DNA of 27,961 bases from Acidimicrobiales bacterium (GTDB lineage Bacteria; Actinomycetota; Acidimicrobiia; Acidimicrobiales; VFJN01). The DNA is taken from positions 1 to 27,961 of the forward strand of contig DATCLV010000514.1 of assembly GCA_036563745.1 (NCBI GenBank), given 5' to 3'. Shown here piece after piece: positions 5,020 through 27,683 of this stretch. The notes under the pieces are model-generated. The model ran no database searches. It was given only the letters and a program-made list of their open reading frames with translations, and was not told where the DNA came from. Position numbers and translations under genes: made by a program. Within the stretch, counting starts at the first letter, position 1. Each line of letters begins with the position of its first letter.

Positions 5020-5037
5020 CCAAGCAAATGCTAGGTT
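5020..5037. promoter_or_regulatory. Shared operator site A (divergent LLM / SnoaL promoter)
   Basis: CCAAGC-AAAT-GCTAGG-TT; overlaps TANNNT -10 candidates on both strands (TAGCAT minus 5033-5028; TAGGTT plus 5032-5037). Confidence 0.7.
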
Positions 5038-5111
5038 GGGACGAAGGGCACGGTACGACCGCCCGGCGGGGCCGTCAACCGGTCCCGCCCGCCGCACCCG
5101 GGAGGAACTCG

Positions 5112-5579
5112 ATGTCCCGACTCGACGACGTCCACGCCATCGAGCAGCTCCTCTACCGCTACGCGGTGGCGATCGACACCCGTGACCTGGCCGCGCTCGA
5201 CGCCGTCTTCACCCCCGACGCCTGGCTCGACATGAGCGTGGCGGGCACGCTGACCCCGGCCGAGTACCGGGCCAAGGCCGCGACGGTGCTGGCCGACCTC
5301 GACGCCACCCACCACCTGCTGGCCAGCCCGCTCGTCGAGGTGGCCGACGACGGCACGACCGCCACCGCCCACTGCTACTACCAGGCCCAGCACGTCCGGA
5401 ACGACTGCCCCGGCGGGCCGCTGCTGCTGATCGGCGGGTGGATCGACGACGAGCTGGTGCGCACCCCGGAGGGCTGGCGGATCACCCGGCGCCGCGGGCG
5501 GGCCGTGTGGTTCGACGGCAACCCGGCGGTGCTGGGGCTCGACGTCCGGGTGCCGGGCGGCCGCCGGCCCGTCGACTGA
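5112..5579 (+). CDS. SnoaL-like / NTF2-family protein
   Basis: AIEQLLYRYAVAIDTRDL..L..VFTPDA, THHLLASPLVEV..D.ATAHCY.QAQH, YxD-like WIDDELVRTPEGWRI; RBS GGAGGA at 5101-5106. Confidence 0.88.
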   Translation: MSRLDDVHAIEQLLYRYAVAIDTRDLAALDAVFTPDAWLDMSVAGTLTPAEYRAKAATVLADLDATHHLLASPLVEVADDGTTATAHCYYQAQHVRNDCPGGPLLLIGGWIDDELVRTPEGWRITRRRGRAVWFDGNPAVLGLDVRVPGGRRPVD

Positions 5580-5676
5580 CCGACGTCGCCCCACGCCGAC
5601 CGACCACGACCGAGAGCGACCACCGCGACGACGACCGGCCGCGGCAGGGTTGACGCCGACCCCGCCGCACGGCCAG

Positions 5677-5697
5677 TTGATCAAATGCTTGGTTGGG
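5677..5697. promoter_or_regulatory. Shared operator site B (amidohydrolase promoter)
   Basis: ATCAAATGCTTGGT (5680-5693); CAAATGCTTGGTTGGG (5682-5697) is 15/16 identical to site A (5025-5040); TTGACG -35 candidate at 5650-5655. Confidence 0.65.
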
Positions 5698-5774
5698 CGT
5701 ACCGTGGCACCGAGCGACGACGAGGCCCGGCCGGCGCACGGCCGCGGCCGGCGAGGCACAGGGGAAGAGTCCTG

Positions 5775-7052
5775 ATGAGCATGACCAGCGAGCGGCCGCG
5801 CCACGAGCTGCTGCCGGAGCCGGAGCCCGAGACCATCCGCTACCCGGTCATCTCCGTCGACGACCACGCCGTCGAACCACCCGACCTGTTCACCTCCCGG
5901 CTGCCCGCCCGCCTCCGGGACGCGGCGCCCCGCGTCGTCGAGGACGAGCGCGGCGACCAGCACTGGCAGATCGGCGACGAGCGCATCCGCATCGGCATCC
6001 AGGGCATGTCCGCCGTGGGCCTGCCGCCCGACAAGCGCACCTACGACGCCATCCGCTACGACGAGATGTGGCCCGGCGCCGTGTCCATCGACGCCCGCGT
6101 GCGCGACATGGACCTCTGTGGCGTCGCCGCCGCCGTGAACTTCCCGTCGACGATCTTCGGCTTCTCGGGGCGGCGGCTGGCCGACATCCCGGACCGCGAG
6201 GTGGGCCTGGCCTGCTTCGAGGCCTACAACGACTGGACCAACGACTACGCCGACGAGCACCCCGGCCGGTTCGTCAAGCAGGGCATCGCCTGGCTGCACG
6301 ACGTCGACGTCGCCGCCGAGCAGGTGCGCCGCAACGCCGAGCGGGGCTTCACCGCCCTGTCGTGGACCGAGAACCCCGAGCGCCTCGGCCTCCCCTCCCT
6401 GTACTCGGGCTACTGGGAGCCGCTGTTCACCGCCTGCGAGGAGACCGGCACCGTGCTCGACCTCCACGTCGGCTCCGGCGCCCTCACGATGGTGCCGTCC
6501 TCCCAGACGCCGGCCCCCGCCCACTCGGTGATGTTCCCGGCCAACGGGATGATGACCGCCGTCGACTGGATCTTCGCCGGCATCCCGTCCCGGCACCCCG
6601 ACCTGAAGATCGTGTTCTCGGAGGCGGGCATCGGCTGGGCCCCGATGGTGCTGGAGCGCATGGAGCGCCAGGAGGCCCGCGGCCGCCTCAACCCGGACGG
6701 CTGGCCGGCGCCCGAGGAGGGCAACATGTTCACCCGGCCGTTCGAGCCGCTGCCCGAGCCGATGGCCGACGCGTTCCGCCGCAACTACTACTTCGCCACG
6801 CTCGGCGAGCCGCTGCTGCTGCGCCTCCGGGACGCCATCGGCATCGACCACATCATGATGGAGTGCGACTACCCGCACACCGACGCCCTCTTCCCGTACG
6901 TGCAGGACACCGTGGTCAACAGCACCGACGGCTGCACCGAGGAGGAGATCCACCGCCTGGCGTGGGCCAACGCCTCCCGGCTCTACCGGCACCCGCTGCC
7001 CGACCTGCCCGGGTTCCCGGCGGTGCCGGAGCACCTGAAGCCGGCGCTCTGA
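5775..7052 (+). CDS. Amidohydrolase_2 family metal-dependent protein
   Basis: ISVDDHAVEPPDLF, RVRDMDLCGV, AYNDW, LDLHVGSG, FSEAGIGW, MECDYPHTD. Start moved to ATG 5775 (or 5781). Confidence 0.88.
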   Translation: MSMTSERPRHELLPEPEPETIRYPVISVDDHAVEPPDLFTSRLPARLRDAAPRVVEDERGDQHWQIGDERIRIGIQGMSAVGLPPDKRTYDAIRYDEMWPGAVSIDARVRDMDLCGVAAAVNFPSTIFGFSGRRLADIPDREVGLACFEAYNDWTNDYADEHPGRFVKQGIAWLHDVDVAAEQVRRNAERGFTALSWTENPERLGLPSLYSGYWEPLFTACEETGTVLDLHVGSGALTMVPSSQTPAPAHSVMFPANGMMTAVDWIFAGIPSRHPDLKIVFSEAGIGWAPMVLERMERQEARGRLNPDGWPAPEEGNMFTRPFEPLPEPMADAFRRNYYFATLGEPLLLRLRDAIGIDHIMMECDYPHTDALFPYVQDTVVNSTDGCTEEEIHRLAWANASRLYRHPLPDLPGFPAVPEHLKPAL

Positions 7053-7121
7053 CCCCGGCGACCGGTCGAGGCCGCGGCGCCGATCGGGCGGCTCGTCACC
7101 CGGACCCGGCAGCGCCGCCGA

Positions 7122-8045
7122 TCAGGCCGGCGCGTGGCGGCGGAACGCCTCGACCAGCGCGCCGCACGCCGCGGCCGGGTCGTCGGCGGCGCCGGGCGCC
7201 AGCCGCAGGTCGACGCGGACGTCGGTCACCCCCGCCGCCACCAGGCGGGGCACCGACGCCATGCTCCCGTCGAGGTCGGGGCGCCCCCCGCCGTCGCGGG
7301 CCACCTCGACCGGCGCCCGCACCTGCAGCGCACCCGGGTCCCGGCCGGCGCCCTCCAGCGCCCGGCGCAGCCGGTCGACCCCGGCCCGGATCTCGTCGAG
7401 CGACGCGCCCATGATCGGGATCCAGCCGTCGCCCAGGCGGGCGATCCGGTCGACGTTGCGCCGGTGCAGCACGCCCGAGAACAGCACCGGCAACCGCGCC
7501 TGGACCGGCTGCGGGGCGCAGAACGTGTCGTCGAAGCGCACGGCGGCCGACGAGAACGACGCCGGCAGGTCCTCCCACAGCGCCCGGCACGCGGCGACCA
7601 CGTCGGTCAGCAGCTCGCCCCGGCGGTCGAAGTCGAGCCCGACCGCGTCGAACTCCTCCCGCTGCCACCCCACCCCGACGCCGAGGTCGAGGCGACCGCC
7701 GGTGAGCTGGTCGACGGTGGCCGCGGTCTTGGCCAGCAGGGCCGCCGGCCGCAGCGGGGCCACCAGGATCCCGGTCGCCAGCCGCAGCCGCTCGGTCACC
7801 GCACCCACCGCCGCCAGGACGGTCAGCGGCTCCAGCCACGGCGCCTCGGGCGGGTAGGGGAACGGGCCCCAGGCGTACTCGTGGGTGTTGCGGCCCATCA
7901 CCACGTGGTCGACCACCACGACGCGGTCGACGCCGGCGGCCTCGGCGGCGCGGGCGAGGTCGAGCAGTTGGCGCCAGCCGGCCTCGGGCCGGGGACCGAA
8001 GTTGGGGAGGCCGACGGTGAGCGTCGGGGTCACGGTCACGGTCAC
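7122..8045 (-). CDS. LLM class oxidoreductase (Rv2161c / TIGR03619-like subfamily)
   Basis: VDHVVMG, EPLTVLAAVGAVTERLRLATGILVAPLRPAALLAKTAATVDQLTGGRLDLGVGVGWQREEF, DGWIP. GTG 8045 overlaps the upstream TGA (GTGA). Confidence 0.9.
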   Translation of the reverse strand: MTVTVTPTLTVGLPNFGPRPEAGWRQLLDLARAAEAAGVDRVVVVDHVVMGRNTHEYAWGPFPYPPEAPWLEPLTVLAAVGAVTERLRLATGILVAPLRPAALLAKTAATVDQLTGGRLDLGVGVGWQREEFDAVGLDFDRRGELLTDVVAACRALWEDLPASFSSAAVRFDDTFCAPQPVQARLPVLFSGVLHRRNVDRIARLGDGWIPIMGASLDEIRAGVDRLRRALEGAGRDPGALQVRAPVEVARDGGGRPDLDGSMASVPRLVAAGVTDVRVDLRLAPGAADDPAAACGALVEAFRRHAPA

Positions 8046-8545
8046 GTCGCGCCCGGCGTCGGGAAGCCGTCGACGGTGTCGTGCCGGGTCCACTGGCGGC
8101 GGACCTCGCGCCGGGCGAACCGCCACCGCCCGGTCGCGTCCCGGGCGTAGCGGTCGAGGTAGCGGATGCCCATGACGTGGTCGTCGTAGCGGCCGTCGCC
8201 GGTGGGGGTGAGGTGGTGGCCGACGCAGGCGGCCTCGCCGGTCGCCGTGTCGGCCGCGGTGTCGGCACCCCCGCCGTCGCCCGGCGTGTCGTCGAGCCGG
8301 CACACGTGGTTGCCCACCAGGTGGAACGTGAGGACGTAGCGGCGCCGGAGGATCGTGATCACCCGGGCGATCTCGTCGACGCCCCGGTGGTCGCCCTCGG
8401 GTGGCCCGTCGCCGGCGTGGGTGGTGAGCCGGGCGTCCGGCAGCCACAGGCTGCGGAACGCGGCCTCGTCCCGGCGGTCGACCGCCGAGGCGTACACGTC
8501 GACCAGCTCGCGCAGCGCCAGACGGTCCTCGATCGGCAGGGTCAC
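8042..8545 (-). CDS. SnoaL-like / NTF2-family protein
   Basis: EDRLALRELVDVYASAVDRRD..AF..LW.PDA, TFHLVGNH, GIRYLDRY.R...GRWRF. GTG 8545 overlaps the upstream TGA. Confidence 0.88.
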   Translation of the reverse strand: MTLPIEDRLALRELVDVYASAVDRRDEAAFRSLWLPDARLTTHAGDGPPEGDHRGVDEIARVITILRRRYVLTFHLVGNHVCRLDDTPGDGGGADTAADTATGEAACVGHHLTPTGDGRYDDHVMGIRYLDRYARDATGRWRFARREVRRQWTRHDTVDGFPTPGAT

Positions 8546-9057
8546 GTCACCGGCACGATCCGGCCGTAGCCGCCCCGGTGGAACACCAGCGGCGAGCGCG
8601 TCGCGCCGGGCAGCTCGAGGTCGAGCACGCGGCCGAGCACCAGCCAGTGGTCGCCGGTGGGGACCACCTGGTCGATCCGGCAGTCGATCCACGCCACCGC
8701 GTCGTCGAGCCGGGGCGCGCCGGTCAGCCCCGGGCGCCAGCCGCAGGACCCGAAGCGGTCGACGCCCTTGGTGGCGAACAGGCGGCACAGGTCCTCCTGG
8801 TGGTCGCCGACCACGTTGGCGCAGAACGCGCCGGCGGCCTCGATGCCCGGCCACGTCGACGACCGGTGGTCGACGAAGAAGCCGACCAGCGGCGGGTCGA
8901 GCGACACCGACGTGAACGACCCGACCGCCAGGCCCACGGGGCCCGGGTCGCCGGGGGCGGTCACGATCGCGACGCCGGTCGGGTGGTGGCCCAGCACCTC
9001 GCGCATGCGGAGGGGGTCGATCACGGGGTCGTCCGGAGGCACGGTCGTCATCGTCAC
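8542..9057 (-). CDS. Flavin reductase family protein (HpaC/HsaB-like)
   Basis: REVLGHHPTGVAIVT, GLAVGSFTSVSLDPPLV, SSTWP, GDHWLVLGRV, PLVFHRGGY. Confidence 0.92.
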   Translation of the reverse strand: MTMTTVPPDDPVIDPLRMREVLGHHPTGVAIVTAPGDPGPVGLAVGSFTSVSLDPPLVGFFVDHRSSTWPGIEAAGAFCANVVGDHQEDLCRLFATKGVDRFGSCGWRPGLTGAPRLDDAVAWIDCRIDQVVPTGDHWLVLGRVLDLELPGATRSPLVFHRGGYGRIVPVT

Positions 9058-11480
9058 AGACCCAGCGGGACCTCGCCGATCACCTGCTCCTCCCGGAGCC
9101 TGGCCAACGCCTCGGCGTCGAGGCCCAGCTCCCCCAGCACCTCGTCGTTGTGCTGGCCGAGCAGCGGGGCGGGCCGGGTGTGCCAGGGCTCGTCACCCCG
9201 GCTGCGCAGGCGGAACGGCAGCGACGGGTAGCGCTTGGGACCCACCACCGGGTGGTCGACCTCCTCGAAGAAGCCGCGGCCGGTGAGCTCGGGTCGCCGG
9301 TCGGCCAGGTGGGCGGGGACCACGGGCTCGGCCGGCACGCCGGCGTCGCGCAGCGCGGCCAGGGCGGCGTCGGCATCGCGGCCGGCGCACCAGGCGGCGA
9401 GCGCCGCGTCGATCCGGTCGGCGGCGGCCCGGCGCCCGGCGGCCGTGGCCAGCTCGGGGTCGTCGAGCCAGGCGTCCTGCCCGACCGCCTTTGCCAGCGC
9501 CGCCCACTCGTCGTCGGTGCGGACGGCAACGGCGATCCAGTCGTCGGCGCCGTCGGGGCCGCAGCGGTAGGCGCCCTGGGGTGCGGCGTGGGGGCCACGG
9601 TTGCCGTCCCGCCCGAGCGACCGGCCGTAGGCGCTGTGCTCGATGGTCTGCTCGGCGGTCACGTTGAGCACCACGTCGATCATCGGTACCTCGATGAGCT
9701 GGCCCTCCCCGGTCCGGCGCCGCTGCTCCAGCGCGGCGAGGGCGGCGACCATGGCGTGGATGCCGGCGAGCGGGTCGCAGACCGGGCCGGGGTTCATGGG
9801 CGGGTCGCCCTCGGGGCCGGTGGTCCAGCACATGCCGCCGGCCTGCGACACGGTCTGGGCGAAGCCGGGCCGGTCGCGCCACGGGCCGTCGAGCCCGAAG
9901 GCGGGCATGCGCACGAGCACGATCCCGGGGTTCACGGCCCGCATCCGCTCGTAGGTGAGCCCGAAGTTGTCGAGCACCCGGGGCGTGTAGTTCTCGACGA
10001 CGAGGTCGGCGGTGGCGAGGAGCTGCTCGAACACCTCCCGACCCCTGGGCGACGACAGGTTGAGCGTGACCTCCCGCTTGCCCAGGTTGGGGGCCACGAA
10101 CACCGGCGCCGTCTCGTACCACTGCGGCTCGGTGCGGGGGACCCGGGTGTTGTAGCGCTGGGGGTCGGGCCGCTGGATCGACTCGATGCGGACGACGTCG
10201 GCGCCCAGGGCGGCCAGCAGCTGCGTGGCGATCGGGCCGGCCCAGAAGGTGGTGAGGTCGAGCACCCGGAGCCCGGCGAGCGGCCGGGGGTTGGGGCGGG
10301 GACCGCCGTCGACGGGTGCGGCGCCGTCGGTCGCCGTTCGGGGCGCCCAGTCGACCCGCCCGTCGTGGGCGCCGACCGCGGGCGGCTCCCCCACCTCGGG
10401 GCGCCGCGACCCGGCCATGCGGAACGGCGACGCCGGCTGCACGAACCCGCCGGCGGGATTGGTGGTGAACGAGCCCCGCTCGACGAGGTGGTCGAAGTGC
10501 GGCATGGTCTCGCCCCGGCCGATCAGCGCCGCCGGCACCCGGAACAGGGCCGCCAGCTCGGTGATCTCCTCGGCGGTGCGGGCCCGGGTCCACTCCCGGA
10601 TCACCGGCAGCAGCTCGTCCTTGCGGGCCATGCGGCCCGGCATGGTGAGCAGCTCCTCGTCCTCGCCGAGGTCGGGGCGCTCGATCATCGTGAGGAAGTC
10701 GAGCCACTGCTGGCCGGTGACCACGAAGAACCCGACGTAGCCGTCGGCGCAGGGCTCGACGCCGGGGATGCTGAGCCAGCGGACGGTCTCGGCGTTCTGG
10801 TGCGGGAAGCTGGCGGTGACCGTCGGGTAGTTGACCAGGCACAGCGCCTGGGCCTCGAGCACCGACACGTCGACGGCGTCGCCGCCCCCGCCCAGGCGGG
10901 CGGCGAGGGCGCCGGCGGCGCCGAACATGGCGGCGACGTACTCGCCCACGCGACCGCCGCCCTCGTTGACGTAGACGGGCGACCCGTCCTGGGCGCCGCG
11001 GGCCGACAGCGATCCCGACAGCGCCTGCAGGAGGAAGTCGCCCGGGTCCTCCCCGGCACGGGGGTTGCCGGCGCCGAAGGGGTCGATCGTGACCGCCACC
11101 GCCGTGGGGTTCAGCGCCCGGACCCGCTCGGGGTCGACGCCGAGGACGATGTCGGCCCCGGCGATGAGGGCGTCGAGGTCGTCGCCCCGGTCGCCACCGT
11201 CGCCGCCGGGGCCGCCGGGGCCGCCGTCGCCGTTCCCGCCAGGGCCACCGCCCGCCGTGACCGACCGCTGGCCGGCCCGCAGGAAGCGGAAGAAGGCGCC
11301 GTCCGGGTGGCCGTCGGCGCCGGTCGAGCCCGTGGTCGACCAGCGCCGCAGCGGGGCACCGCCCGGCGGTTCGGCCACCACCACGTCGGCCCCGAGGTCG
11401 GTGAGCAGCTTGGCGCAGTACGCGCCGGCCACCCCGGTCGTGGCGTCGAGGACCCGCACCCCGTCCAGCGCTGTCGTCAC
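9054..11480 (-). CDS. Class III CoA transferase, tandem CaiB/BaiF domains
   Basis: Two repeats: LDGVRVLD...YCAKLLTDLGADVV and LAGLRVLDLT.FWAGP.ATQLLAALGADVVRIES; NLGKR, ENYTP, RPGF. Start GTG 11480 with RBS GGGGAGG. Confidence 0.92.
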   Translation of the reverse strand: MTTALDGVRVLDATTGVAGAYCAKLLTDLGADVVVAEPPGGAPLRRWSTTGSTGADGHPDGAFFRFLRAGQRSVTAGGGPGGNGDGGPGGPGGDGGDRGDDLDALIAGADIVLGVDPERVRALNPTAVAVTIDPFGAGNPRAGEDPGDFLLQALSGSLSARGAQDGSPVYVNEGGGRVGEYVAAMFGAAGALAARLGGGGDAVDVSVLEAQALCLVNYPTVTASFPHQNAETVRWLSIPGVEPCADGYVGFFVVTGQQWLDFLTMIERPDLGEDEELLTMPGRMARKDELLPVIREWTRARTAEEITELAALFRVPAALIGRGETMPHFDHLVERGSFTTNPAGGFVQPASPFRMAGSRRPEVGEPPAVGAHDGRVDWAPRTATDGAAPVDGGPRPNPRPLAGLRVLDLTTFWAGPIATQLLAALGADVVRIESIQRPDPQRYNTRVPRTEPQWYETAPVFVAPNLGKREVTLNLSSPRGREVFEQLLATADLVVENYTPRVLDNFGLTYERMRAVNPGIVLVRMPAFGLDGPWRDRPGFAQTVSQAGGMCWTTGPEGDPPMNPGPVCDPLAGIHAMVAALAALEQRRRTGEGQLIEVPMIDVVLNVTAEQTIEHSAYGRSLGRDGNRGPHAAPQGAYRCGPDGADDWIAVAVRTDDEWAALAKAVGQDAWLDDPELATAAGRRAAADRIDAALAAWCAGRDADAALAALRDAGVPAEPVVPAHLADRRPELTGRGFFEEVDHPVVGPKRYPSLPFRLRSRGDEPWHTRPAPLLGQHNDEVLGELGLDAEALARLREEQVIGEVPLGL

Positions 11481-11527
11481 GTCGCCTCCCCCTTCCACCG
11501 GGCTCCCGTGGAGCACTTTTCCTACCG

Positions 11528-11554
11528 GCCGAGCGCTTGCTTGGTAACGTTACC
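11528..11554. promoter_or_regulatory. Shared operator site C plus palindrome GGTAACGTTACC (divergent CoA transferase / SBP promoter)
   Basis: CCGAGC-GCTT-GCTTGG (11529-11544) abutting a 12-bp perfect palindrome (11543-11554) that carries TAACGT on each strand. Confidence 0.7.
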
Positions 11555-11606
11555 CCGTCGATTCCCTGTGCCGCCACGTGTCGGGCGGCCGACCCCAGGA
11601 GGCACC

Positions 11607-12833
11607 ATGCGAGCTCGACGCCCTCTCGCCCTCACCGCGACGGCGCTGCTGCTGCTCGCCGCCGCGGCGTGTGGCGACGACGACGACCCGGCCGAGGAGG
11701 CGGGCGGTTCCACCGGCGCCGACGGCGAGCTGCAACTCGACGATCCCCTCAAGATCGCCTTCCTCTGGGAGGTCAGCGGCGAGAGCGCCAACGCCGTCGA
11801 CTTCTACCAGAACAGCGCCATGCTGGCGGTGGAGGCGATCAACGAGGCCGGCGGCGTCGGCGGGCACCCGATCGAGACCGTCCGCATCTCCGCCCCGCCC
11901 CTCGACCTCCAGAAGTCGCAGGCCGCCTACCTCGAAGCCCTCGACGAGGACCCCGACGTGATCGTCGGCTTCCCGTCCTCCGGCCAGGTCGAGGCCGCGC
12001 AGACCAACATCGAGCGCGGCGGCGTGCCGTTCCTGTCGGTCGCCTCGCAGAACCTCAAGTACGGCGAGGACGGCATCAGCGAGTACATGTGGGCGCTGCT
12101 GCCGTCGGTCGACTCCATCGTCGGCACCACCGTCGAGTACATGGTCGAGGAGGCCGGCCACACCGAGATCGGGCTCATGGCCACCACCGAGACGTTCGGC
12201 ACCGCCGCCACCGAGGCCGCCAAGGCCGCCCTGGAGGAGAAGGGCATCGAGCTCGCCGCCGAGCGCCGCTACGAGCCCGACGCGACCGACCTCACCGAGG
12301 CCGTGCTCGCCATGCGCGACGTCGAGGCCGTCATGGACTGGGGCTTCCCGAACCCGATGGCGGTCCAGCTCAAGCAGTTCCAGCAGAACGGCATCGACAT
12401 CCCGACCTACATGCACAGCGCCGCGCAGGTCATCGTCGAGAACGAGCTGGCCACCGGCGACGCCATCGCCCAGCTCCACGCCGCGGTCCCCTGCAACCCG
12501 ACCGGCACCGACCGGCCGTCGCTGCAGGCGTTCACCGAGCAGTACCAGGAGGAGCACGGCGTGTCGCCGTCCAGCTCCGGGACCGCCGCCCACGACGCCA
12601 TCTACATCATCAAGGCGGCCGTCGAGGAGGCCGGGACCACCGACCCCGAGGCCCTCAACGAGGCGCTGGGGTCGATCAGCGTCGAGGACGACGACCTCAT
12701 CTGCAACTCCGAGTACCACGCCGACGGGGCCCACTACCTGGCCCACGAGGTGGCGGTGATCAAGTTCGCGGCCGACGGCTCGTCGACCACGGAGAAGACC
12801 TACACGGTCCCCGACGTCGACGCCGCCGGCTGA
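11607..12833 (+). CDS. ABC transporter substrate-binding lipoprotein (LivJ / Peripla_BP_6 type)
   Basis: Signal peptide ending LAAAAC; AMLAVEAINEAGGVGGHPIE; FG.AA..AA..ALEEKGIEL.AE..Y; AHDAIYIIKAAVEEAGTTD; RBS AGGAGG. It is the real gene at the end of the 9150-12833 track ORF. Confidence 0.9.
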   Translation: MRARRPLALTATALLLLAAAACGDDDDPAEEAGGSTGADGELQLDDPLKIAFLWEVSGESANAVDFYQNSAMLAVEAINEAGGVGGHPIETVRISAPPLDLQKSQAAYLEALDEDPDVIVGFPSSGQVEAAQTNIERGGVPFLSVASQNLKYGEDGISEYMWALLPSVDSIVGTTVEYMVEEAGHTEIGLMATTETFGTAATEAAKAALEEKGIELAAERRYEPDATDLTEAVLAMRDVEAVMDWGFPNPMAVQLKQFQQNGIDIPTYMHSAAQVIVENELATGDAIAQLHAAVPCNPTGTDRPSLQAFTEQYQEEHGVSPSSSGTAAHDAIYIIKAAVEEAGTTDPEALNEALGSISVEDDDLICNSEYHADGAHYLAHEVAVIKFAADGSSTTEKTYTVPDVDAAG

Positions 12834-12841
12834 CCCGGCTC

Positions 12842-12944: not shown

Positions 12945-13700
12945 TCACTGCATGGTGATGCCGCCGCTCACGCTCAACGTCTGGCCGGTGACGTAGCCGG
13001 CCCGGCCGCTGCACAGGAACGCCACCGTGGCGGCCACGTCCTCGGGCCGACCCAGGCGCCGCAACGGGATCGACCGCACCAGCGCCTCGACCAGCTGCGG
13101 CTTCTCCGCCTGCACCGCCCGCGTCATCGGCGTGTCGGTGGGGCCGGGGCACACCACGTTGCTGGTCACCTCCGCCCGGGCCACCTCCCGGGCCAGCGAC
13201 CGGGCGAAGCCGAACAGCCCGGCCTTGCACGCCGTGTAGACGGCCTCGCCCCCGGCGCCGGCCCGGGCGCCGTCGGACGCCACGAACACCACCCGCCCCC
13301 AGCGCCGCTCCACCATGCCGCCCACCAGCGCCTGGGTCAGCAGCATCGGGGCCTTGAGGTTGACCTGCCACTGGCGGTCCCAGGTGGCCGGGTCGCTGTC
13401 GGCGAACCGCTCGACCTGCGTGATGCCGGCGTTGTTCACCAGCACGTCGACCGGGCCGTGGTCCCGGGTGACGGCGGCGGCGAAGGCGGCGATCGAGGCG
13501 TCGTCGGCCAGGTCGACCTCGGCCGCGACCCCGGCGCCGCCCGGCAGCCCGGCGGCGACCCGCTCGGCGCCGGCGGCGTCGACGTCGGCGACCACCACGC
13601 GGGCGCCGAGGGCCGCCAGGTCGGTGGCGATGGCCGAGCCGATCGCCCCGGCGGCGCCGGTCACCACGGCCACCCGGCCGGTCAGGGAGAGTCCGTCCAT
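12945..13700 (-). CDS. SDR oxidoreductase, 2-hydroxycyclohexanecarboxyl-CoA dehydrogenase (BadH)-like
   Basis: TGAAGAIG, NNAG, ASDGARAG, YTACK, CPGPTDT, GQTLSVSGG (the SDxAR / GPTDT / SVSGG combination is typical of BadH-like SDRs). Confidence 0.85.
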   Translation of the reverse strand: MDGLSLTGRVAVVTGAAGAIGSAIATDLAALGARVVVADVDAAGAERVAAGLPGGAGVAAEVDLADDASIAAFAAAVTRDHGPVDVLVNNAGITQVERFADSDPATWDRQWQVNLKAPMLLTQALVGGMVERRWGRVVFVASDGARAGAGGEAVYTACKAGLFGFARSLAREVARAEVTSNVVCPGPTDTPMTRAVQAEKPQLVEALVRSIPLRRLGRPEDVAATVAFLCSGRAGYVTGQTLSVSGGITMQ

Positions 13701-13761
13701 CCGTGTGCTCCTCGGGTCGTCGTTCGGAGGTCGAGCGGTCGGGGTTCCGGGGCCCGGCGGT

Positions 13762-14853
13762 TCAGGCGACCGCGGCCGCGCCGTCGCCGGCGACCACGTA
13801 GCGCTCGGCCATCACCCGATGGCCGGCGGCGTTCGGGTGCAGGCCGTCGGGCAGCAGACCGGCGTCGGCCGGGCCCAGGAGGTCGAGCCCGTCGACGTAG
13901 GCGAGGTGGGCGTCGCCGAGCGAGCGCCGCACGTCGACCACCTGCCGCAGCGCGCCGCGCATGGCGGCCAGCGACAGGTCGCCCTCCACCTCCCGCCGCC
14001 ACGTCGGGGTCACCAGCACCGACCGGGCCGTCGCCTCCCGCTCGGGGCTCACCACCGGCGACAGCACCGTGACCGGCACGGTCGGGTGGCCGTCACGGAC
14101 CGACGCCACGAACCCGTGGACCGCCGGGCCGAACGTGCGCTCCCGCAGCGTGGCGAAGTTGTGGACGTTGATGCCCAGCTCGAGGGTCACGTGGTCGGCG
14201 TCCAGCCCCGCGATCGCCCGGGCGACCAGCGGGTCGAGGTGGCACTGGCCGGTGTAGCCCAGGTTCACCAGGTGCCAGCCCCGGCGGCGGGCCACCAGCG
14301 CCGGCCACGTGCGGGTGGGGCGGAGGCCCGAGCCCTGGGTGATGCTGCTGCCGTAGACGACCCAGCGGGGCCGCCGGTCGGGCGGCGGGGGCTCGTCGTG
14401 GGCGACCGCGTCGACCGCCACCGCCCGCACCCGGACCGCCGGCGCCGGCGGCAGCCACAGCTCCAGGTCGTGCGGGCCGGGCGGGAGGTCGTCGAAGCAC
14501 ACCTCGTGACGGCCGGGCCCGTGGCCGGCCAGCCGGGTGACGACGAGGTCGCCGTCGACCACCAGGTCGAGGTGGACGGGCAGCCGGTAGCCCTCGTGGC
14601 CGGGCAGCTCCCGGGCCTCCAGGGCGACCGCCACCGACCGGGTGTCGCTGCGCCACCGCAGCCGGACGCCCGACGGGCAGCGGGCCGCGGCCACCAGCGC
14701 CGGGTGGTGGAGCGGCCGGTCGGCGGCGGGGAGCCGCCACGGCTGGACGCCCTCGCCGGTCGCCTCGACCGCCAGGGCGCCGTCCCACCGCACGACGGCG
14801 TCACCCGAGTCGGCGGCGTCACCCGGGCCGCTCGTCAGGTCCAGCTCACGCAT
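13762..14853 (-). CDS. SGNH/GDSL hydrolase with N-terminal beta-sandwich (SsfX3-like)
   Basis: YGSSITQG (block I), NLGYTG (II), ELGIN (III), DGLHP (V); N-terminal SGVRLRWRSD. Confidence 0.85.
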   Translation of the reverse strand: MRELDLTSGPGDAADSGDAVVRWDGALAVEATGEGVQPWRLPAADRPLHHPALVAAARCPSGVRLRWRSDTRSVAVALEARELPGHEGYRLPVHLDLVVDGDLVVTRLAGHGPGRHEVCFDDLPPGPHDLELWLPPAPAVRVRAVAVDAVAHDEPPPPDRRPRWVVYGSSITQGSGLRPTRTWPALVARRRGWHLVNLGYTGQCHLDPLVARAIAGLDADHVTLELGINVHNFATLRERTFGPAVHGFVASVRDGHPTVPVTVLSPVVSPEREATARSVLVTPTWRREVEGDLSLAAMRGALRQVVDVRRSLGDAHLAYVDGLDLLGPADAGLLPDGLHPNAAGHRVMAERYVVAGDGAAAVA

Positions 14854-15280
14854 CGGTCCCGGGGCGGGGACGGAAGCTGGGGATCGTGCCCCAGCCCGGT
14901 CGCTCGGTGAAGGTCACCTCGACGGGGAGCCCGATGCGCACGTCGTCCGGGGCGATGTCGACCAGGTCGGCGAACACCCGGAGGCCGGCCTGCTCCTCCA
15001 GGTCGACCCAGCCCACGGCGTAGGGCACCTCGCCGTCGAAGCCGAGGACGAACGGGCGGTGGACGACGGTGAACGTCGCCACCTCGCCCCGACCAGACAC
15101 CGGCTCGAACGCCAGCTCGGTGCTCCCGCACGACGGGCAGCGCACGTCGGGGAAGTGCACCCAGCGGCGGCAGCCGGCGCACCGCTGGATCTCCAGCCGT
15201 CCCTGCCGTGCCGCCTCCCAGTAGGGCGCGGCCAGGTCGCTCGGCGTGGGGACGGGCTTGGCGGGGGTCGTGTCGCTCAC
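14846..15280 (-). CDS. DUF35-type Zn-ribbon/OB-fold protein
   Basis: PYWEAARQGRLEIQRCAGC...HFP..RCPSC, SGRGEV.TFTVVHR, PYAVGWVDLEEQ, GLPVEVTF. GTG 15280 overlaps the thiolase TGA; absent as a separate ORF in the track. Confidence 0.92.
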   Translation of the reverse strand: MSDTTPAKPVPTPSDLAAPYWEAARQGRLEIQRCAGCRRWVHFPDVRCPSCGSTELAFEPVSGRGEVATFTVVHRPFVLGFDGEVPYAVGWVDLEEQAGLRVFADLVDIAPDDVRIGLPVEVTFTERPGWGTIPSFRPRPGTDA

Positions 15281-16491: not shown

Positions 16492-16528
16492 GCGGCCAGA
16501 CTAGCCAACCGAGCGCTAGCTTGGTCCA
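16492..16528. promoter_or_regulatory. Compact divergent leaderless promoter pair with shared operator site D
   Basis: Minus TAGTCT (16503-16498) 6 nt before ATG 16491; plus TAGCTT (16517-16522) 6 nt before GTG 16529; CCGAGC-GCTA-GCTTGG at 16509-16524. Confidence 0.7.
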
Positions 16529-17368
16529 GTGGGTCGGATCGTGGTGACCGGGGCGTCGGGACGGCTGGGGCGGGCGGTGGCCGAACGGCTGCTCGACGCC
16601 GGGGAGGCCCCGATCCTCGTGACCCGCCGACCCGCCGCCCTCGCCGACCTGGCCGCCCGGGGCGCGGCGGTGCGGCCCGGCGACTTCGACGACCCGGCCG
16701 GCCTCGCCCGGGCCTTCGCCGGCGGCGAGCGGCTGCTGCTGATCAGCACCGACGCCCTCGACCGCCGGGTCGCCCAGCACCGGGCCGCGATCGACGCCGC
16801 CGTCGCCGCCGGGGTCCGGCACCTCGTGTACACGTCGCTGTCGGACCCCGTGCCCGGCCACCCGGTCGCCGAGGTCACCGACGCCCACCGGCACACCGAG
16901 GCGGCGCTGCGGGCCCTCGGCCCGGCGATCCGGTGGACGATCCTGCGCAACGCCACCTACGCCGACGCCCTCGTCCCGCTCTGGCGCCGGGCCTCCGCCG
17001 AGGGCCGGCTGGTCACCAACCTCGGCCACGGCACGACCGCCTGGGTGGCCCGCGCCGACTGCGCCGCCGTCGCCGCCGCCGTGCTGACCACCGACGGCCA
17101 CGACCACACCGTGCACGACATCACCGGTCCCGAGCGCCTGGGGGCCGAGGACCTCGCCCGGCTCCTCGGCGTCCCGGTCGTCCCCGTGACCGACGAGGAG
17201 ATGACCGCCCACCTCGTCGCGCAGGGCCTCGCCCCCGCCCGCGCCGAGCTCGTCGCCACCTGGCACCGCGCCATCCGCGAGGGCCACTTCGCCCCCTGCA
17301 CCACCACCGTCGAGGACCTCACCGGCCACCCCGCCACCACGGTCGCCGCCCTCCTCGCCGACGCCTGA
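16529..17368 (+). CDS. NmrA-like NAD(P)-binding protein (YtfG/QOR2-type atypical SDR)
   Basis: IVVTGASGRLG, RPGDFDDPAGL..AF.G.ERLLLIST, RVAQHRAAIDAA..AGVRHLVYTS, WTILRN, VARADCA. Confidence 0.88.
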   Translation: MGRIVVTGASGRLGRAVAERLLDAGEAPILVTRRPAALADLAARGAAVRPGDFDDPAGLARAFAGGERLLLISTDALDRRVAQHRAAIDAAVAAGVRHLVYTSLSDPVPGHPVAEVTDAHRHTEAALRALGPAIRWTILRNATYADALVPLWRRASAEGRLVTNLGHGTTAWVARADCAAVAAAVLTTDGHDHTVHDITGPERLGAEDLARLLGVPVVPVTDEEMTAHLVAQGLAPARAELVATWHRAIREGHFAPCTTTVEDLTGHPATTVAALLADA

Positions 17369-24320: not shown

Positions 24321-25412
24321 CTACCGCGGGACGAACACCCCGTGCAGCGGCGGCGGGTCGCCCGACGCGCCGGCCATCGTCAGCAGCAGGTCGCCGACGT
24401 CCGCGAACCCGGCCGTGCGCCGCGGGATGCGGGCGGCGGGGAACGTGCCCGTGACCAGCAGGTCCAGCGCCCGCTCGTGGGCGGCGGTGCTGACCCCGCT
24501 GGCGCCCTGCAGGCGCAGGCCCCGGTTGACGATCAGGTCGGGGGCGAAGGTGAGGGTCACCTCGCCGCCCCGGACGCCGGCGACGACCACCCGCCCGCCC
24601 TTGCCGGCGAGCGCGACGGCCTGGGCGAACGCGGTGGGCGCCTTGGCGGTCACGTCGACGACCACGTCGGCCAGGCCGCCGGTGGCGTCCTGCAGGGCGG
24701 CGACCGGGTCGTCGCGGGCCACGTCGACGGCGAGGTCGGCACCCAGCTCCCGGGCCAGCTCCAGCCGGGGCAGGTCGTGGGGGCCGACGCCGGTCACCAT
24801 GACGAACCCCGCCCCCGCCGCCTTGGCGGCCGCCACCGCGGCGATGCCCCGGATGCCGGGGCCGAGGACGGCCACCACGTCGCCGGGGCCGGTGCCGGGG
24901 ATCTCCACGCCCCAGCACACGCCGGCGCCCAGCGGGTTGAACAGGGCGGCGTCGACCGGGTCGAGGTCGGGCGGCAGCTTGTGCACCACCGACCGGGGGC
25001 CCAGGTAGTGGTGGGTGGCGTAGCCGCCCCACAGGCCCGGGGCCCGGTCGACGGGCGTGAGGCCGTAGGGCAGGCCGTCGTAGTCGGCGCAGGCGGCCAG
25101 CTCGCCCCGGCGGCACGGCTCGCACTCGCGGCACGCCGGCCGGGGCGCGACGGTCACCCGGTCACCGGCGGCGACGCCCCACCGGGCGGCGGCCACGGGC
25201 CCGATGGCCTCGATGACGCCGACGGTCTCGTGGCCGGGCACGAACCCGGGCGGCCAGGGCAGGTCGCCGGTGTAGAGCTCGTGGTCGGTGCCGCACAGGC
25301 CGCAGGCCTCGACCCGGAGGACGGCGTCGTCCTCCCCCACCGCGGGGAGGGGCAGCTCCCGAGCGACGAGCCGCCGCGGCGCCTCCAGCACGAGGGCGGT
25401 GGCGGCGCTCAT
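24321..25412 (-). CDS. Zn-binding medium-chain dehydrogenase/reductase
   Basis: VEACGLCGTDH, PGHE, structural Zn CRECEPC..G...C, GPGIRG; ATG 25412 overlaps the upstream TGA (ATGA). Confidence 0.92.
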   Translation of the reverse strand: MSAATALVLEAPRRLVARELPLPAVGEDDAVLRVEACGLCGTDHELYTGDLPWPPGFVPGHETVGVIEAIGPVAAARWGVAAGDRVTVAPRPACRECEPCRRGELAACADYDGLPYGLTPVDRAPGLWGGYATHHYLGPRSVVHKLPPDLDPVDAALFNPLGAGVCWGVEIPGTGPGDVVAVLGPGIRGIAAVAAAKAAGAGFVMVTGVGPHDLPRLELARELGADLAVDVARDDPVAALQDATGGLADVVVDVTAKAPTAFAQAVALAGKGGRVVVAGVRGGEVTLTFAPDLIVNRGLRLQGASGVSTAAHERALDLLVTGTFPAARIPRRTAGFADVGDLLLTMAGASGDPPPLHGVFVPR

Positions 25413-26290
25413 CGCCGGTGCTCCAGCGCCAGGCCGGGCGTGGGCCAGGTGCAGGCGACGACCCGGCCGGTCTCCGACAGGGTCAGGTAGGCGGTGGTGC
25501 GGTCGGGCCCGCCGAAGCAGAGGTTGGTGACCATGGGGTCGAACAGGTCGTCGGGCAGCGTGTGCTGGGTGACCGTGCCCCCGTCGGCGCTGAACTGCGT
25601 GACCACGCCGGAGATCAGCGTGCCGACGCAGACGCTGCCGTCGGCGGCCACGGCCAGCGAGTCGAACATCTGGACGCCGGGGACGCTGCCCACCAGCGAG
25701 TCGGGGTCGTGGTTGCGGTCGTGGACGAGCTCGCCGGGGCCCACGATCTCCCGCCCGTAGAGCCGGCCGGACAGGGTCTCGGCCCAGTAGAGCGTGCGGC
25801 CGTCGGGCGAGAGGCCGATGCCGTTGGGGGCGTCGACCTTGTCGATCACTCGCACGATCCCGCTGCCGTCGGCCCGGGCGTGGAACAGCCCGCCGTAGAG
25901 GCGGGCGTCGGCGAGGAACTTGCCGGTGTCGGTGAACCAGAAGCCGCCGTCGCCGTCGAAGACGAGGTCGTTGGGTCCGGCGAGCCGTCGCCCGTCGCAC
26001 GCCTCGTAGAGCACCTCGACCTTGCCGGTGTCGAGGTCGACCCGCTCGACGCGCCCGCCCCGGTACTCGGCTTCGGCGCCGCCGTTGTTGCAGACGTAGA
26101 GGGCGCCGTCGGGGCCGATGGCCATGCCGTTGGGCCCGCCGCCGGGCTCGGCGACCACCTCGGGGCGCCCCGTCCCGTCGGGCGGGATCCGGGTGACGAC
26201 GCCCCGGCGGATCTCGGCGACGAGGAGGCTGCCGTCGTCCAGCGCCACCGGCCCCTCGGGGAAGACCAGCCCCTCCGCCACGACCCGCAC
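25409..26290 (-). CDS. SMP-30/gluconolactonase/LRE family protein
   Basis: FPEGP, PNGMA, PNDLVFD..GG.WFTD, PNGIGLSPDG, TNLCFGG. GTG 26290 is preferred over ATG 26320 because the extra 10 codons consist of operator site E; the start is uncertain. Confidence 0.9.
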   Translation of the reverse strand: MRVVAEGLVFPEGPVALDDGSLLVAEIRRGVVTRIPPDGTGRPEVVAEPGGGPNGMAIGPDGALYVCNNGGAEAEYRGGRVERVDLDTGKVEVLYEACDGRRLAGPNDLVFDGDGGFWFTDTGKFLADARLYGGLFHARADGSGIVRVIDKVDAPNGIGLSPDGRTLYWAETLSGRLYGREIVGPGELVHDRNHDPDSLVGSVPGVQMFDSLAVAADGSVCVGTLISGVVTQFSADGGTVTQHTLPDDLFDPMVTNLCFGGPDRTTAYLTLSETGRVVACTWPTPGLALEHRR

Positions 26291-26293
26291 GTC

Positions 26294-26316
26294 AACAAGC
26301 GGTCGCTTGCTTGGTT
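26294..26316. promoter_or_regulatory. Shared operator site E (lactonase-MDR promoter)
   Basis: Plus AACAAGC-GGTC-GCTTGCTTGGTT; minus AACCAAGCAAGCGACCGCTTGTT. Confidence 0.65.
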
Positions 26317-26445
26317 CCATGGACCACTTCTACACCAGGCCGGCACCCCCGTGCAGGGGGGCCCACGGGGGTGCCGGCGGGTGGAGGTGCAGCGGCAGGG
26401 CGGACCCGGGCGGCGGCCGGGGCCGGGCGGGCCGACCCGGCCCCG

Positions 26446-26880
26446 TCAGTGGGCGTGCTCGTGGTGGTGGCGGACCATCACCAGGTACATGAGCGGGAAC
26501 ATCGCCACGTGCTCGATCACCATCAGGGCGCCGCCGTCGAGCACCCCGGCCCCGACGAGCGGCAGCAGCGCCACCGGCGTGACGAGCATGGCGCCGGCCA
26601 TCTCCAGGGTCCCGGCCCAGGCATGGCCCCGGAACCGCATCCAGACGACCATGCCGAGCGCCATGTCGACGGCCATCTTCAACGCGGCGACCGCGGGCGA
26701 CAGCTCGACGTCGAGCCCGAGGACCGCCACCGCCCCGACCCAGAGCCCGCCGAACACGCCCATGCCCACGAACATCGCCACGACCATCTCCAGGTAGTGG
26801 CGGGCGAGCCCCCGCGACCACCACACGGTGCCGTGCCCCGGCTCGACACCCGTCGTCCTCTGCAGCTCTGCGACCGTCAT
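26446..26880 (-). CDS. Small Met/His-rich four-helix membrane protein of unknown function
   Basis: 144 aa, four hydrophobic segments, 14 Met, 9 His, C-terminal HHHEHAH; RBS GGGAGGGGA. Confidence 0.8.
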   Translation of the reverse strand: MTVAELQRTTGVEPGHGTVWWSRGLARHYLEMVVAMFVGMGVFGGLWVGAVAVLGLDVELSPAVAALKMAVDMALGMVVWMRFRGHAWAGTLEMAGAMLVTPVALLPLVGAGVLDGGALMVIEHVAMFPLMYLVMVRHHHEHAH

Positions 26881-26904
26881 CCCGATCCCCTCCCTCGCCT
26901 TTAA

Positions 26905-26959
26905 GTCGAACAGTGTTGTTCAGGTTTTCCGCACGATAACCTGAACACACCTGTTCGAC
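26905..26959. promoter_or_regulatory. Paired TetR-type operators in the divergent promoter
   Basis: 22-bp inverted repeat (19/22) with an 11-nt spacer; each arm contains GAACA-N4-TGTTC (26908-26921, 26943-26956). Confidence 0.8.
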
Positions 26960-26987
26960 AACCCTGATCGACTGGGGGATCCCCCTG

Positions 26988-27551
26988 ATGCGAGCCGACG
27001 CCCTCCGCAACATCGACGCGATCCTCGAGGCGGGCCACCGCTGCCTGGCCGCCGATCCCGACGCCTCGGTGGGCGACATCGCCAAGGCGGCCGGCGTCGG
27101 CCGGGTCACGCTCTACGGGCACTTCGCCAACCGGGCCGAGCTCGTCGAGGCCGTCGTCCAGCGGGCGCTGGCGCGCTTCGACGCCGCGCTGGCGTCGGTC
27201 GACTTCGGCGGCGACCCGCGTCAGGCGCTGGTGCGGCTGGTGGAGGCGAGCTGGCGACCCACGGCCGAGTCGGCGAACCTCCTGGTCGCCGCCGAACGGG
27301 CGCTCCCGCCGGAGAAGCTGCTGGCCACCCACGAGGGGCCGGCCAAGCGGGTGGTCGAGCTGCTGGAGCGCGGCCGCGAGGCGGGCGCGTTCCGCACCGA
27401 CCTGCCCACGTCGTGGCTGGTCGCGATGTTCCACGCCACCGTGCACGCCGCGGCCAACGAGCTGGCCGCCGGCAACCTCGACCCCGACGCCGCGGCGCCC
27501 ACCATCGCCACGACCCTCCTCGCCGCCTTCACCCCACCCACCCCGACCTAG
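26988..27551 (+). CDS. TetR/AcrR family transcriptional regulator
   Basis: RADALRN..AILEA, SVGDIAKAAGVGRVTLYGHFANRAEL (HTH); GRxAGAFRTDL. Confidence 0.93.
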   Translation: MRADALRNIDAILEAGHRCLAADPDASVGDIAKAAGVGRVTLYGHFANRAELVEAVVQRALARFDAALASVDFGGDPRQALVRLVEASWRPTAESANLLVAAERALPPEKLLATHEGPAKRVVELLERGREAGAFRTDLPTSWLVAMFHATVHAAANELAAGNLDPDAAAPTIATTLLAAFTPPTPT

Positions 27552-27630
27552 CGGGGGAGCGGTCACCGACCGACGACGTCGACCCGTCCTCCGCCGGTGG
27601 GTCGGACAGCACGTTCCGGTTGGCGGGACC

Positions 27631-27683
27631 TTGACCCGGGGCGGGGGTGGGCTTAGCTTGCCATTGACCAAGCGATTGCTTGG
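27631..27683 (+). promoter_or_regulatory. Sigma70-type promoter plus shared operator site F (aldehyde dehydrogenase)
   Basis: TTGACC (27631-27636), 17 nt, TAGCTT (27654-27659), then a perfect CCAAGC-GATT-GCTTGG (27668-27683) at the predicted start region. Confidence 0.78.

Follow-up and report, generated by a model that had tools for sequence, protein, structure and literature searches.

Six KstR2-type boxes on an Acidimicrobiales contig are predicted to belong to a large, non-canonical catabolic regulon

KstR2 is the TetR-family repressor that in mycobacteria acts as the switch for the last steps of steroid breakdown, and its targets there include virulence determinants. Why, then, does one contig of an Acidimicrobiales bacterium carry six copies of a KstR2-like operator beside genes that do not resemble KstR2 targets, and which protein would read them? 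The window, by which we mean the whole stretch of 27,961 nucleotides that was analysed (NCBI GenBank assembly GCA_036563745.1, contig DATCLV010000514.1), is the largest contig, C846, of a metagenome-assembled genome (MAG) of 4.96 Mb in 882 contigs, with 74.6% GC, a completeness of 73% and a contamination of 2%. We consider it likely, with a probability of roughly 0.85, that the six sites are operators of KstR2-family TetR repressors that are encoded elsewhere in the genome and would control a large, non-canonical catabolic regulon.

Genes were called with a codon-usage log-odds caller trained on the genome, which found 26 genes in the window and agrees with the ENA gene calls on the same and on orthologous contigs, and the products were annotated with Pfam. 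Noncoding DNA makes up 10% of the genome and about 2 kb of the window, and by these calls all six sites lie in it, as a preliminary description of the window had proposed. The six 14-mers quoted in that description each occur once (at 5023, 5680, 11528, 16508, 26294 and 27667) and all are within one or two mismatches of the classical KstR2 14-mer, AnCAAGnnCTTGnT. The sites and their settings are as follows.

Box 1, 5020..5039, CCAAGCAAATGCTAGGTTGG, in the divergent gap between a luciferase-like (LLM) oxidoreductase gene (minus strand) and a SnoaL_4 gene (plus strand).
Box 2, 5677..5696, TTGATCAAATGCTTGGTTGG, 78 bp 5′ of an Amidohydro_2 gene.
Box 3, 11525..11546, core CCGAGCGCTTGCTTGG, in the divergent gap between a CoA-transferase operon (minus strand) and a solute-binding-protein gene (plus strand).
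Box 4, 16505..16526, core CCGAGCGCTAGCTTGG, filling most of the 37-bp divergent gap (16492-16528) between an Ltp-thiolase operon (minus strand) and an NmrA-like gene (plus strand).
Box 5, 26292..26316, ACAAGCGGTCGCTTGCTTGG, with a perfect CAAGC-GGTC-GCTTG, at the 5′ end of an operon for an SMP-30 lactonase and a Zn-dependent alcohol dehydrogenase (Zn-ADH; minus strand).
Box 6, 27664..27685, core CCAAGCGATTGCTTGG, 30 bp 5′ of an aldehyde dehydrogenase gene.

Overlap of the boxes with −10 elements or start regions had also been described, and promoter-like hexamers or start regions were indeed found at them. Boxes 1 and 3 contain TANNNT hexamers, the −10-like TAGGTT lying within box 1 and the −10-like TAACGT being overlapped by box 3, while box 2 begins at a −35-like TTGATC and ends 3 bp before a −10-like TACCGT, the two being spaced by 17 bp. 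On either strand of the gap that holds box 4, −10-like hexamers stand about 7 nt from the start codon, which suggests two divergent leaderless mRNAs, both covered by the box. Box 5 is located 4 bp 5′ of the called start, or inside codons 2-9 if the ATG at 26320 is used, and box 6 lies directly downstream of a TTGACC-N16-TAGCTT promoter-like pair. These positions at promoter elements and start regions fit a repressor.

The noncoding copies share the core CCAAGC-N4-GCTTGG, which sits inside a pseudo-palindrome of 20-24 bp with the approximate consensus cAACCAAGCAAnnGCTTGGTTgg. Nine KstR2 operators have been listed, three of them (from M. tuberculosis) positive in electrophoretic mobility shift assays (PMC3068626). 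The 4-bp periodicity that was noted for the window recurs in the published operators, which show the same 4-bp-shifted double reading, CAAG-N2-CTTG inside CCAAGC-N4-GCTTGG, and the 16-mer of box 6, CCAAGCGATTGCTTGG, is that of the R. jostii ro04652/53 KstR2 operator listed in PMC3068626. We symmetrised the seven distinct published operators from M. tuberculosis, from M. smegmatis and from R. jostii (PMC3068626) into a literature-only matrix. On the window this matrix returned exactly the six claimed sites, with 22.5 bits for box 1, 18.5 for box 2, 16.9 for box 3, 20.7 for box 4, 14.9 for box 5 and 24.0 for box 6, and no other site of at least 8 bits. Thus the cutinase, FAD-Rieske, Amphi-Trp, PepSY/two-component, hrpA and TetR promoters are box-free, in agreement with the preliminary description. 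With the genome's own matrix, box 1 scored 31.9 bits and box 3 25.9 bits, and boxes 2 and 5 scored 18.8 and 16.8 bits even though they were not among its seeds.

Genome-wide, the core with at most one mismatch has 17 noncoding and 4 coding matches, and with the literature-only matrix a threshold of 14 bits gives 27 noncoding sites versus 1 coding site, one of 16 bits 25 versus 0. Equal frequency in coding DNA, the outcome named beforehand as speaking against operators, was therefore not what we observed. Lowering the threshold to 12 bits gives 30 noncoding sites, on contigs C374, C399, C299, C654, C503, C126, C846 and a few others; 22 of the 30 have at most one mismatch to AnCAAGnnCTTGnT, as expected of boxes of the KstR2 type.

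Could the sites be something other than operators, namely a REP/MITE-like dispersed repeat, a sequence belonging to promoters of an alternative sigma factor, or an artefact, by composition or chance, of intergenic DNA being richer in AT? Against a background of 75% GC the motif is richer in A/T, and the bare 14-mer with up to two mismatches is common, at about 7 per 28 kb. However, 100 dinucleotide-preserving shuffles of all intergenic DNA gave a mean of 0.75 sites of at least 14 bits (maximum 4), against the 27 observed, and 0.29 sites of at least 16 bits. Conservation ends at the edges of a box of about 23 bp, the positions beyond having an information content of about 0.1-0.3 bits. Moreover, the sites are palindromic, occur in both orientations at variable distances from the start codon (4-162 bp) and match KstR2 operators that were shifted experimentally (PMC3068626), so that we find a non-operator explanation barely credible. 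With the genome-derived matrix, 0 sites of at least 16 bits were found in about 1 Mb of high-GC loci from other Actinomycetota, which comprised 80 loci (Mycobacterium, Streptomyces, Acidimicrobiia and others) with distant homologues (42-54% identity) of the 808-aa CoA-transferase of the window, fetched for another purpose; the boxes are not conserved at this distance, and the set serves as a negative control.

The chance estimates of the preliminary description, which were based on the 14-mer with up to two mismatches, did require correction. In coding DNA about 7.3 matches are found per 28 kb and not about 2, roughly a 3-fold difference, and about 0.5 matches rather than 0.15 are expected in the intergenic DNA of the window, six matches against an expectation of about 0.5 having a Poisson P of ~2e-5. 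Genome-wide, the bare 14-mer AnCAAGnnCTTGnT with up to two mismatches is not enriched in noncoding DNA, and it was therefore dropped as a criterion. The strong evidence is the longer motif, and the conclusion survives the correction.

Conservation was assessed in L122, an ENA contig from a related organism (HrpA 84% identical) that shares synteny with the window over the segment reaching from the aldehyde dehydrogenase gene to that of the CoA-transferase. Boxes 3, 4, 5 and 6, that is, four of the four that were testable, are kept there upstream of the orthologues. Against this only moderately diverged relative, 86 of 91 box positions are identical (95%), versus 164 of 209 alignable positions of the flanking intergenic DNA (78%; Fisher P = 2e-4). 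Box 3 lies in 35 identical nt with diverged flanks, box 4 is identical at 21 of 22 positions and box 5 at 25 of 25, and box 6 is kept along with its −35 and −10 hexamers.

The regulator had been predicted to lie elsewhere in the genome, the TetR of the window having a different box. The latter protein is LfrR-like, its best PDB match being LfrR and not KstR2, and two KstR2 homologues, both adjoining boxes, are encoded on other contigs.

C374:8276-8875, KstR2-like paralogue with TetR_N and TetR_C_24; best PDB matches are KstR2 structures, full length, E 9e-40.
C654:14489-15139, KstR2-like paralogue with TetR_N and TetR_C_24; best PDB matches are KstR2 structures, full length, E 1.6e-43.

The best PDB matches of both proteins are 4W97 and 4W1U (KstR2) and 2IBD, which we take to be the R. 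jostii KstR2 homologue, the next matches having E values of 1e-17 to 1e-22. In NCBIfam no KstR2 model was matched above its cut-off by either paralogue; database homologues of the C654 protein with 42-48% identity carry the NCBI names KstR2 or 'cholesterol catabolism regulator'. PaaR-type CoA-sensing TetRs have an ACCGA-N4-TCGGT-like box next to paa genes, compared with CCAAGC-N4-GCTTGG for the boxes described here, and PaaR is absent from the strong PDB or NCBIfam matches. Both paralogues have the stretch AGILSGSLYHHF in exactly the form found in M. tuberculosis KstR2, which accounts for the near-identity of the box; given where it lies in the DNA-binding domain, this stretch is probably the recognition helix. 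We aligned ten family members (both paralogues, the homologue from the same-genus genome G002, three metagenomic relatives, one Acidimicrobiia protein and three Mycobacterium KstR2 proteins), in which (A/S)GILSGSLYHHF is invariant and the DNA-binding domains are 55-66% identical, the value between the two paralogues being 58%.

A KstR2 orthologue with a box in its own promoter was expected, and a box is present 50 bp 5′ of the C374 regulator gene. The C654 regulator gene is the last of a box-headed DUF35/Ltp/ACAD operon, and a further box follows its stop codon. Since each regulator gene stands behind a box, both paralogues are predicted to be autoregulated. It is also conceivable that a single binder, either one of the paralogues or a third KstR2-like protein missing from the assembly, takes all boxes and that the other paralogue has a different operator. 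In its favor, the assembly lacks 27% of the genome, identity between the paralogues in the DNA-binding domain is only 58%, and the boxes can be grouped by spacer (AAGC in 13 of the 30 sites, AAAT in 5, AATC in 3, plus others), which could mean different binders. Yet the AGILSGSLYHHF stretch is identical in both paralogues and both regulator genes are found among boxes, and we consider a single binder somewhat unlikely.

Of 25 relatives, only G002 and G019, the latter a member of the same order, yielded KstR2 homologues. Around the KstR2-like gene of G002 there are about nine boxes, in a gene cluster that is non-orthologous to the clusters of the source genome, and G019 has one or two boxes. 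Raw pattern counts in the 25 relatives, taken without gene context, were uninformative, and a search of three same-genus genomes with the window DNA gave only scattered paralogous matches (65-75% identity) without boxes. L120, an unrelated metagenome contig of 63% GC, encodes a 49%-identical regulator and has three boxes, one of them 5′ of the TetR gene, in a neighborhood of Liv ABC, binding-protein, SDR, Amidohydro_2 and nitroreductase genes. The gene order DUF35/Ltp/ACAD/TetR/HMGL of C654 is preserved on a further contig, L121.

What would these repressors control? The preliminary description had counted about 15 controlled genes in the window, and our count of predicted targets is 16-17 genes in nine transcription units, as listed here with Pfam assignments.

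3856..4986, minus strand, luciferase-like (LLM) oxidoreductase, single gene (Bac_luciferase, 4.7e-53); box 1 is 33 bp upstream.
5112..5579, plus strand, SnoaL_4 protein (5.3e-32); box 1 is 72 bp upstream.
5775..7052, plus strand, Amidohydro_2 hydrolase, decarboxylase or lactonase-type (1.3e-22); box 2 is 78 bp upstream.
7122..11480, minus strand, four-gene operon encoding a fused double family-III CoA-transferase (808 aa), a flavin reductase, a SnoaL_4 protein and an F420-type LLM; box 3 is 44 bp upstream.
11607..12833, plus strand, Liv-type periplasmic solute-binding lipoprotein (Peripla_BP_6, 2.4e-45); box 3 is 62 bp upstream.
12945..16491, minus strand, operon encoding an Ltp-type thiolase, a DUF35 protein (ChsH2-like OB fold), a GDSL/SsfX3-like esterase and, after a 61-bp gap, an SDR; box 4 is 13 bp upstream.
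16529..17368, plus strand, NmrA-like NAD(P)H-binding protein; the end of box 4 is 4 bp upstream of the start codon.
24321..26290, minus strand, operon encoding an SMP-30/gluconolactonase-like lactonase and a Zn-ADH; box 5 is at the 5′ end.
27714..27959, plus strand, aldehyde dehydrogenase (Aldedh), cut by the contig end; box 6 is 30 bp upstream.

ENA gene calls give the same four genes for the 7122..11480 operon, and its LLM passes the TIGR03619 cut-off (F420-type). The best NCBIfam match of the Ltp-type thiolase is 'lipid-transfer protein', below cut-off. The Amphi-Trp gene located 72 bp downstream of the NmrA-like gene may or may not be co-transcribed with it. None of the targets in the window is a canonical KstR2 target, as had been claimed, since Pfam and NCBIfam place all of them in other families.

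This last result bears on whether the boxes mark an ordinary KstR2 regulon for the steroid C/D-ring (HIP), in which the window genes would be divergent equivalents of ipdAB, ipdC, ipdF, echA20, fadA6, fadD3 and fadE30-33 and the effector would be HIP-CoA. Both the box and the stretch in the DNA-binding domain are the same as for M. tuberculosis KstR2, ACAD, ECH, thiolase and SDR genes occur within the regulon, and the best NCBIfam match of a ligase on C374 (2-1657) is the FadD3 family. In addition, the genome encodes a KshA_C-type Rieske oxygenase and a clear IpdB orthologue (on C539, E 1e-77 to 6CO6_B, the solved IpdAB beta subunit), so that some steroid-type catabolism is present. However, 0 of the 16-17 targets in the window are orthologous to the canonical families, the FadD3-family match falls under the curated cut-off (500 vs 657 bits), and the C654 ligases are FadD4-like; no ligase in this fragmented MAG reaches the FadD3 cut-off of NCBIfam. 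The real ech, ipdA and ipdB genes are also without a box: the 137-bp gap 5′ of ech/ipdA on C122 has a best score of 6.6 bits, and no KstR2-type box was found on the IpdB contig either. From the box-free ech/ipdA genes and the lack of a ligase at the FadD3 cut-off we conclude that the boxes do not mark the HIP regulon in the form defined for Mycobacterium and Rhodococcus (PMC5380842). Together with ligand domains only about 31% identical to mycobacterial KstR2 and about 30 boxes, compared with 3 in M. tuberculosis, M. smegmatis and RHA1, this makes an ordinary HIP regulon quite improbable. The ech, ipdA and ipdB genes themselves form part of a canonical-looking cluster with a FabK-like and an ACAD gene, split over C122:6500-7830 and C539:1-3387, in which the FabK-like gene is possibly ipdC. 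Other AT-rich stretches in the 137-bp gap might be a different operator.

The predicted regulon comprises about 30 boxes heading about 39 transcription units and about 73 genes. All 30 sites are located within 162 bp upstream of at least one start codon (range 4-162, median 44), and 13 of the 30 serve divergent pairs, with sites in both orientations. Several families recur: LLM oxidoreductases (at least one passing the F420-type TIGR03619 cut-off) with SnoaL_4 partners and a flavin reductase or nitroreductase; SMP-30 lactonases and Amidohydro_2 enzymes; family-III CoA-transferases, AMP-ligases, ACADs, ECH, MaoC and an HMGL-like lyase; and DUF35/Ltp-thiolase pairs as well as Liv-type ABC importers with their binding proteins. 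Judged from the syntenic stretch of L122 (1045-6631), the aldehyde dehydrogenase operon runs on beyond the right end of the window with genes for a cyclase, a 197-aa protein and a Zn-ADH, after which come two tandem boxes and a solute-binding-protein gene; this continuation corresponds to contig C503 of the MAG.

Individual units of the regulon stand out. A box that ties for the highest score under the own-genome matrix, 37 bits (the literature matrix gives it 24.2 bits), lies 10 bp upstream of an operon at C374:16601-19473 whose four genes encode a 2-oxoacid:ferredoxin oxidoreductase (POR gamma, ferredoxin-type delta, alpha and beta), which is unexpected in an aerobic-looking catabolic regulon. 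At C411:438-3442, a 950-aa protein combining GNAT and NDP-forming acyl-CoA synthetase domains (a Pat-like protein acyltransferase) has a box 129 bp upstream, a hint at a link between the regulon and protein acylation or acyl-CoA homeostasis. A unit with an LLM, an SMP-30 and a RibBA-like gene (DHBP synthase plus GTP cyclohydrolase II) at C374:1900-5103 has a box at its head and presumably resembles Rv1936-Rv1940, a part of the Mce3R regulon in M. tuberculosis. With an LLM monooxygenase, a flavin reductase and ribA1 among its genes, that regulon is similar to the LLM/SMP-30/RibBA-like unit. Finally, a PaaX-like regulator gene at C374:20887-21374, cut by the contig end, has a weak box 30 bp upstream (13.9 bits, own-genome matrix).

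We propose the following mechanism, in which binding, repression, the pairing of paralogues with boxes and the effector are all inferred from sequence. One dimer of a KstR2-family repressor, or two, would bind the pseudo-palindrome of 20-24 bp that is built on CCAAGC-N4-GCTTGG and contains the classical 14-mer. With the box lying over a −10 element, a transcription start or a start-codon region, transcription would be blocked, often in both directions of a divergent gap, and both paralogues would read the same boxes through their common stretch in the DNA-binding domain. Repression would most likely be lifted by an acyl-CoA intermediate formed by the CoA ligases or CoA-transferases of the regulon itself. 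A CoA thioester is suggested as the effector because that of KstR2 is HIP-CoA (PMC5380842) and because nearly all enzymes of the regulon use or make CoA esters; the diverged ligand domains argue that the effectors would differ from HIP-CoA and from each other. The genes under control would provide uptake (Liv-type ABC), flavin- and F420-type LLM oxidoreductases with SnoaL proteins and flavin reductases, lactonases, CoA activation, and retro-aldol, thiolytic and beta-oxidation steps. This content fits a catabolic network for alicyclic or other branched or cyclic acids and not the canonical HIP operons.

A bolder extension, which we hold to be unlikely, is that the KstR2 family has radiated in the Acidimicrobiales into several paralogues with one DNA-reading head and operator and different ligand domains. 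One box set, of at least 39 units, would then integrate two or more acyl-CoA signals and control a Baeyer-Villiger/lactonase-type route (LLM, SnoaL and flavin reductases, SMP-30 and Amidohydro_2 lactonases, family-III CoA-transferases and DUF35/Ltp lyases) that would degrade HIP-like bicyclic ketones, terpenoids or other alicyclic acids. If true, such a route would be an alternative, of a kind that Lee and Sih put forward 50 years ago (quoted in PMC5380842), to the hydrolytic ring opening by IpdAB and EchA20.

Compared with KstR2 of Mycobacterium and Rhodococcus (Rv3557c, MSMEG_6009 and ro04598; PMC3068626, PMC5380842), the paralogues have full-length TetR-family homology (E ~1e-40 to 1e-43), the identical AGILSGSLYHHF stretch and the box AnCAAGnnCTTGnT inside CCAAGC-N4-GCTTGG, with one 16-mer in common with an RHA1 operator. 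In both systems the boxes lie in short divergent promoter gaps at 4-160 bp from start codons and the regulators are autoregulated, here by prediction. The systems differ in host (mycolic-acid actinobacteria there, an Acidimicrobiales MAG here), in number (two paralogues here, whose ligand domains have 23-31% identity with KstR2 and with one another) and in regulon size (3 boxes and about 15 genes there, about 30 boxes and about 39 predicted transcription units here). Their targets differ as well, being ipdABCF, echA20, fadA6, fadD3 and fadE30-33 there and LLM, SnoaL, lactonases, family-III CoA-transferases, DUF35/Ltp and ABC importers here, where the ech, ipdA and ipdB genes are found without a box. 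A closer parallel in size is Nocardioides simplex VKM Ac-2033D, for which KstR2 sites, their motif being 'very similar' to that of mycobacteria, have been predicted at 29 operons (PMC7807495, PMC7593942), one third of them phytosterol-responsive (PMC7807495). Both regulons are large, computationally predicted and outside Mycobacteriales, but that of N. simplex is centred on steroid clusters (A and C) and is in part expression-supported, whereas here the steroid core genes are not targets, two divergent paralogues are present and the system is known from its sequence alone. Large predicted KstR2 regulons are therefore already known; new are the Acidimicrobiales lineage, two ligand-diverged paralogues with one operator, the regulon size, and the LLM/SnoaL/lactonase-rich content with box-free ipd genes.

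Other acyl-CoA-sensing TetRs (Fad35R, DesT, the FadR proteins of Thermus and Bacillus, and PaaR) likewise act as TetR dimers on a palindrome and are released by a CoA thioester of their pathway, but they match the paralogues more weakly (E 1e-7 to 1e-17, compared with 1e-40 for KstR2). The operators of Fad35R, DesT, FadR and PaaR differ from the boxes described here. Mce3R of M. tuberculosis is the next-best PDB match after KstR2 (E ~1e-17). It is a double-TetR protein with a non-palindromic operator that is stated to be distinct from that of KstR2 (PMC11667970), whereas the boxes here are palindromic and of KstR2 type.

If the proposal is correct, the DNA-reading head and operator of KstR2 have been re-used, in uncultured soil- or plant-associated Acidimicrobiales, for a roughly ten-fold larger and different network. 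Partial matches to this DNA come from plant, soil and sludge metagenomes. The regulon map would gather about 70 poorly annotated genes, many of them LLM, SnoaL and lactonase genes, into one physiological unit, and would provide a natural case of TetR repressors changing effector with the operator retained as well as two candidate biosensor proteins for acyl-CoA metabolites. It also calls for caution, as a KstR2 homologue or box does not automatically mean 'cholesterol catabolism'.

Several points weigh against the proposal of KstR2-family operators and a large regulon. Boxes 2 and 5 are the weakest of the six (14.9-18.5 bits), the left half-site of box 2 being weak, and near the TetR genes of L119 and L121, which encode close homologues of the C654 regulator, no convincing box was found in the DNA examined. 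In the ten aligned family members, ligand domains are mostly 15-31% identical, with about 31% to mycobacterial KstR2 and 23% between the paralogues, which leaves a CoA-thioester effector no more than plausible. The positions of M. tuberculosis Arg162 and Trp166, which presumably contact HIP-CoA, align to Met and Leu in the C654 protein and to Arg and Ala in the C374 protein. Gene starts rest on a home-made caller, and since the MAG is fragmented and incomplete, operon ends, regulon size and the assignment of contigs to the organism are approximate; a third regulator could be absent from the 73%-complete assembly. A search for RNA runs containing this DNA found none.

The remaining genes of the window, annotated with Pfam, are arranged in three groups.

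Left end, before the LLM gene of box 1: MFS transporter, cutinase/PETase-like hydrolase and FAD-Rieske oxidoreductase.
Between the NmrA-like gene and the Zn-ADH/SMP-30 genes: Amphi-Trp, PepSY, histidine kinase, response regulator and HrpA, in that order.
Right end, after box 5: Met-rich membrane protein (26446-26880), TetR (26988-27551), then box 6 and the aldehyde dehydrogenase.
26905..26959, outside the regulon: inverted repeat with 25-nt arms, 84% complementary, and a 5-nt loop, 5′ of the LfrR-like TetR gene (26988-27551).

The closest named relatives of the HrpA helicase are all 'Acidimicrobiales bacterium' MAGs, with 62-73% identity. A GC-rich hairpin at 26338-26378, GGCCGGCACCCCCGTG...CACGGGGGTGCCGGC, stands between box 5 and the membrane-protein gene and is likely a terminator that separates two minus-strand units, and L122 also has a hairpin at the matching position. 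The 26905-26959 repeat lies in the divergent gap between the TetR and Met-rich membrane protein genes and is probably a separate operator of the TetR of the window, in line with the different box that the preliminary description had assigned to this protein.

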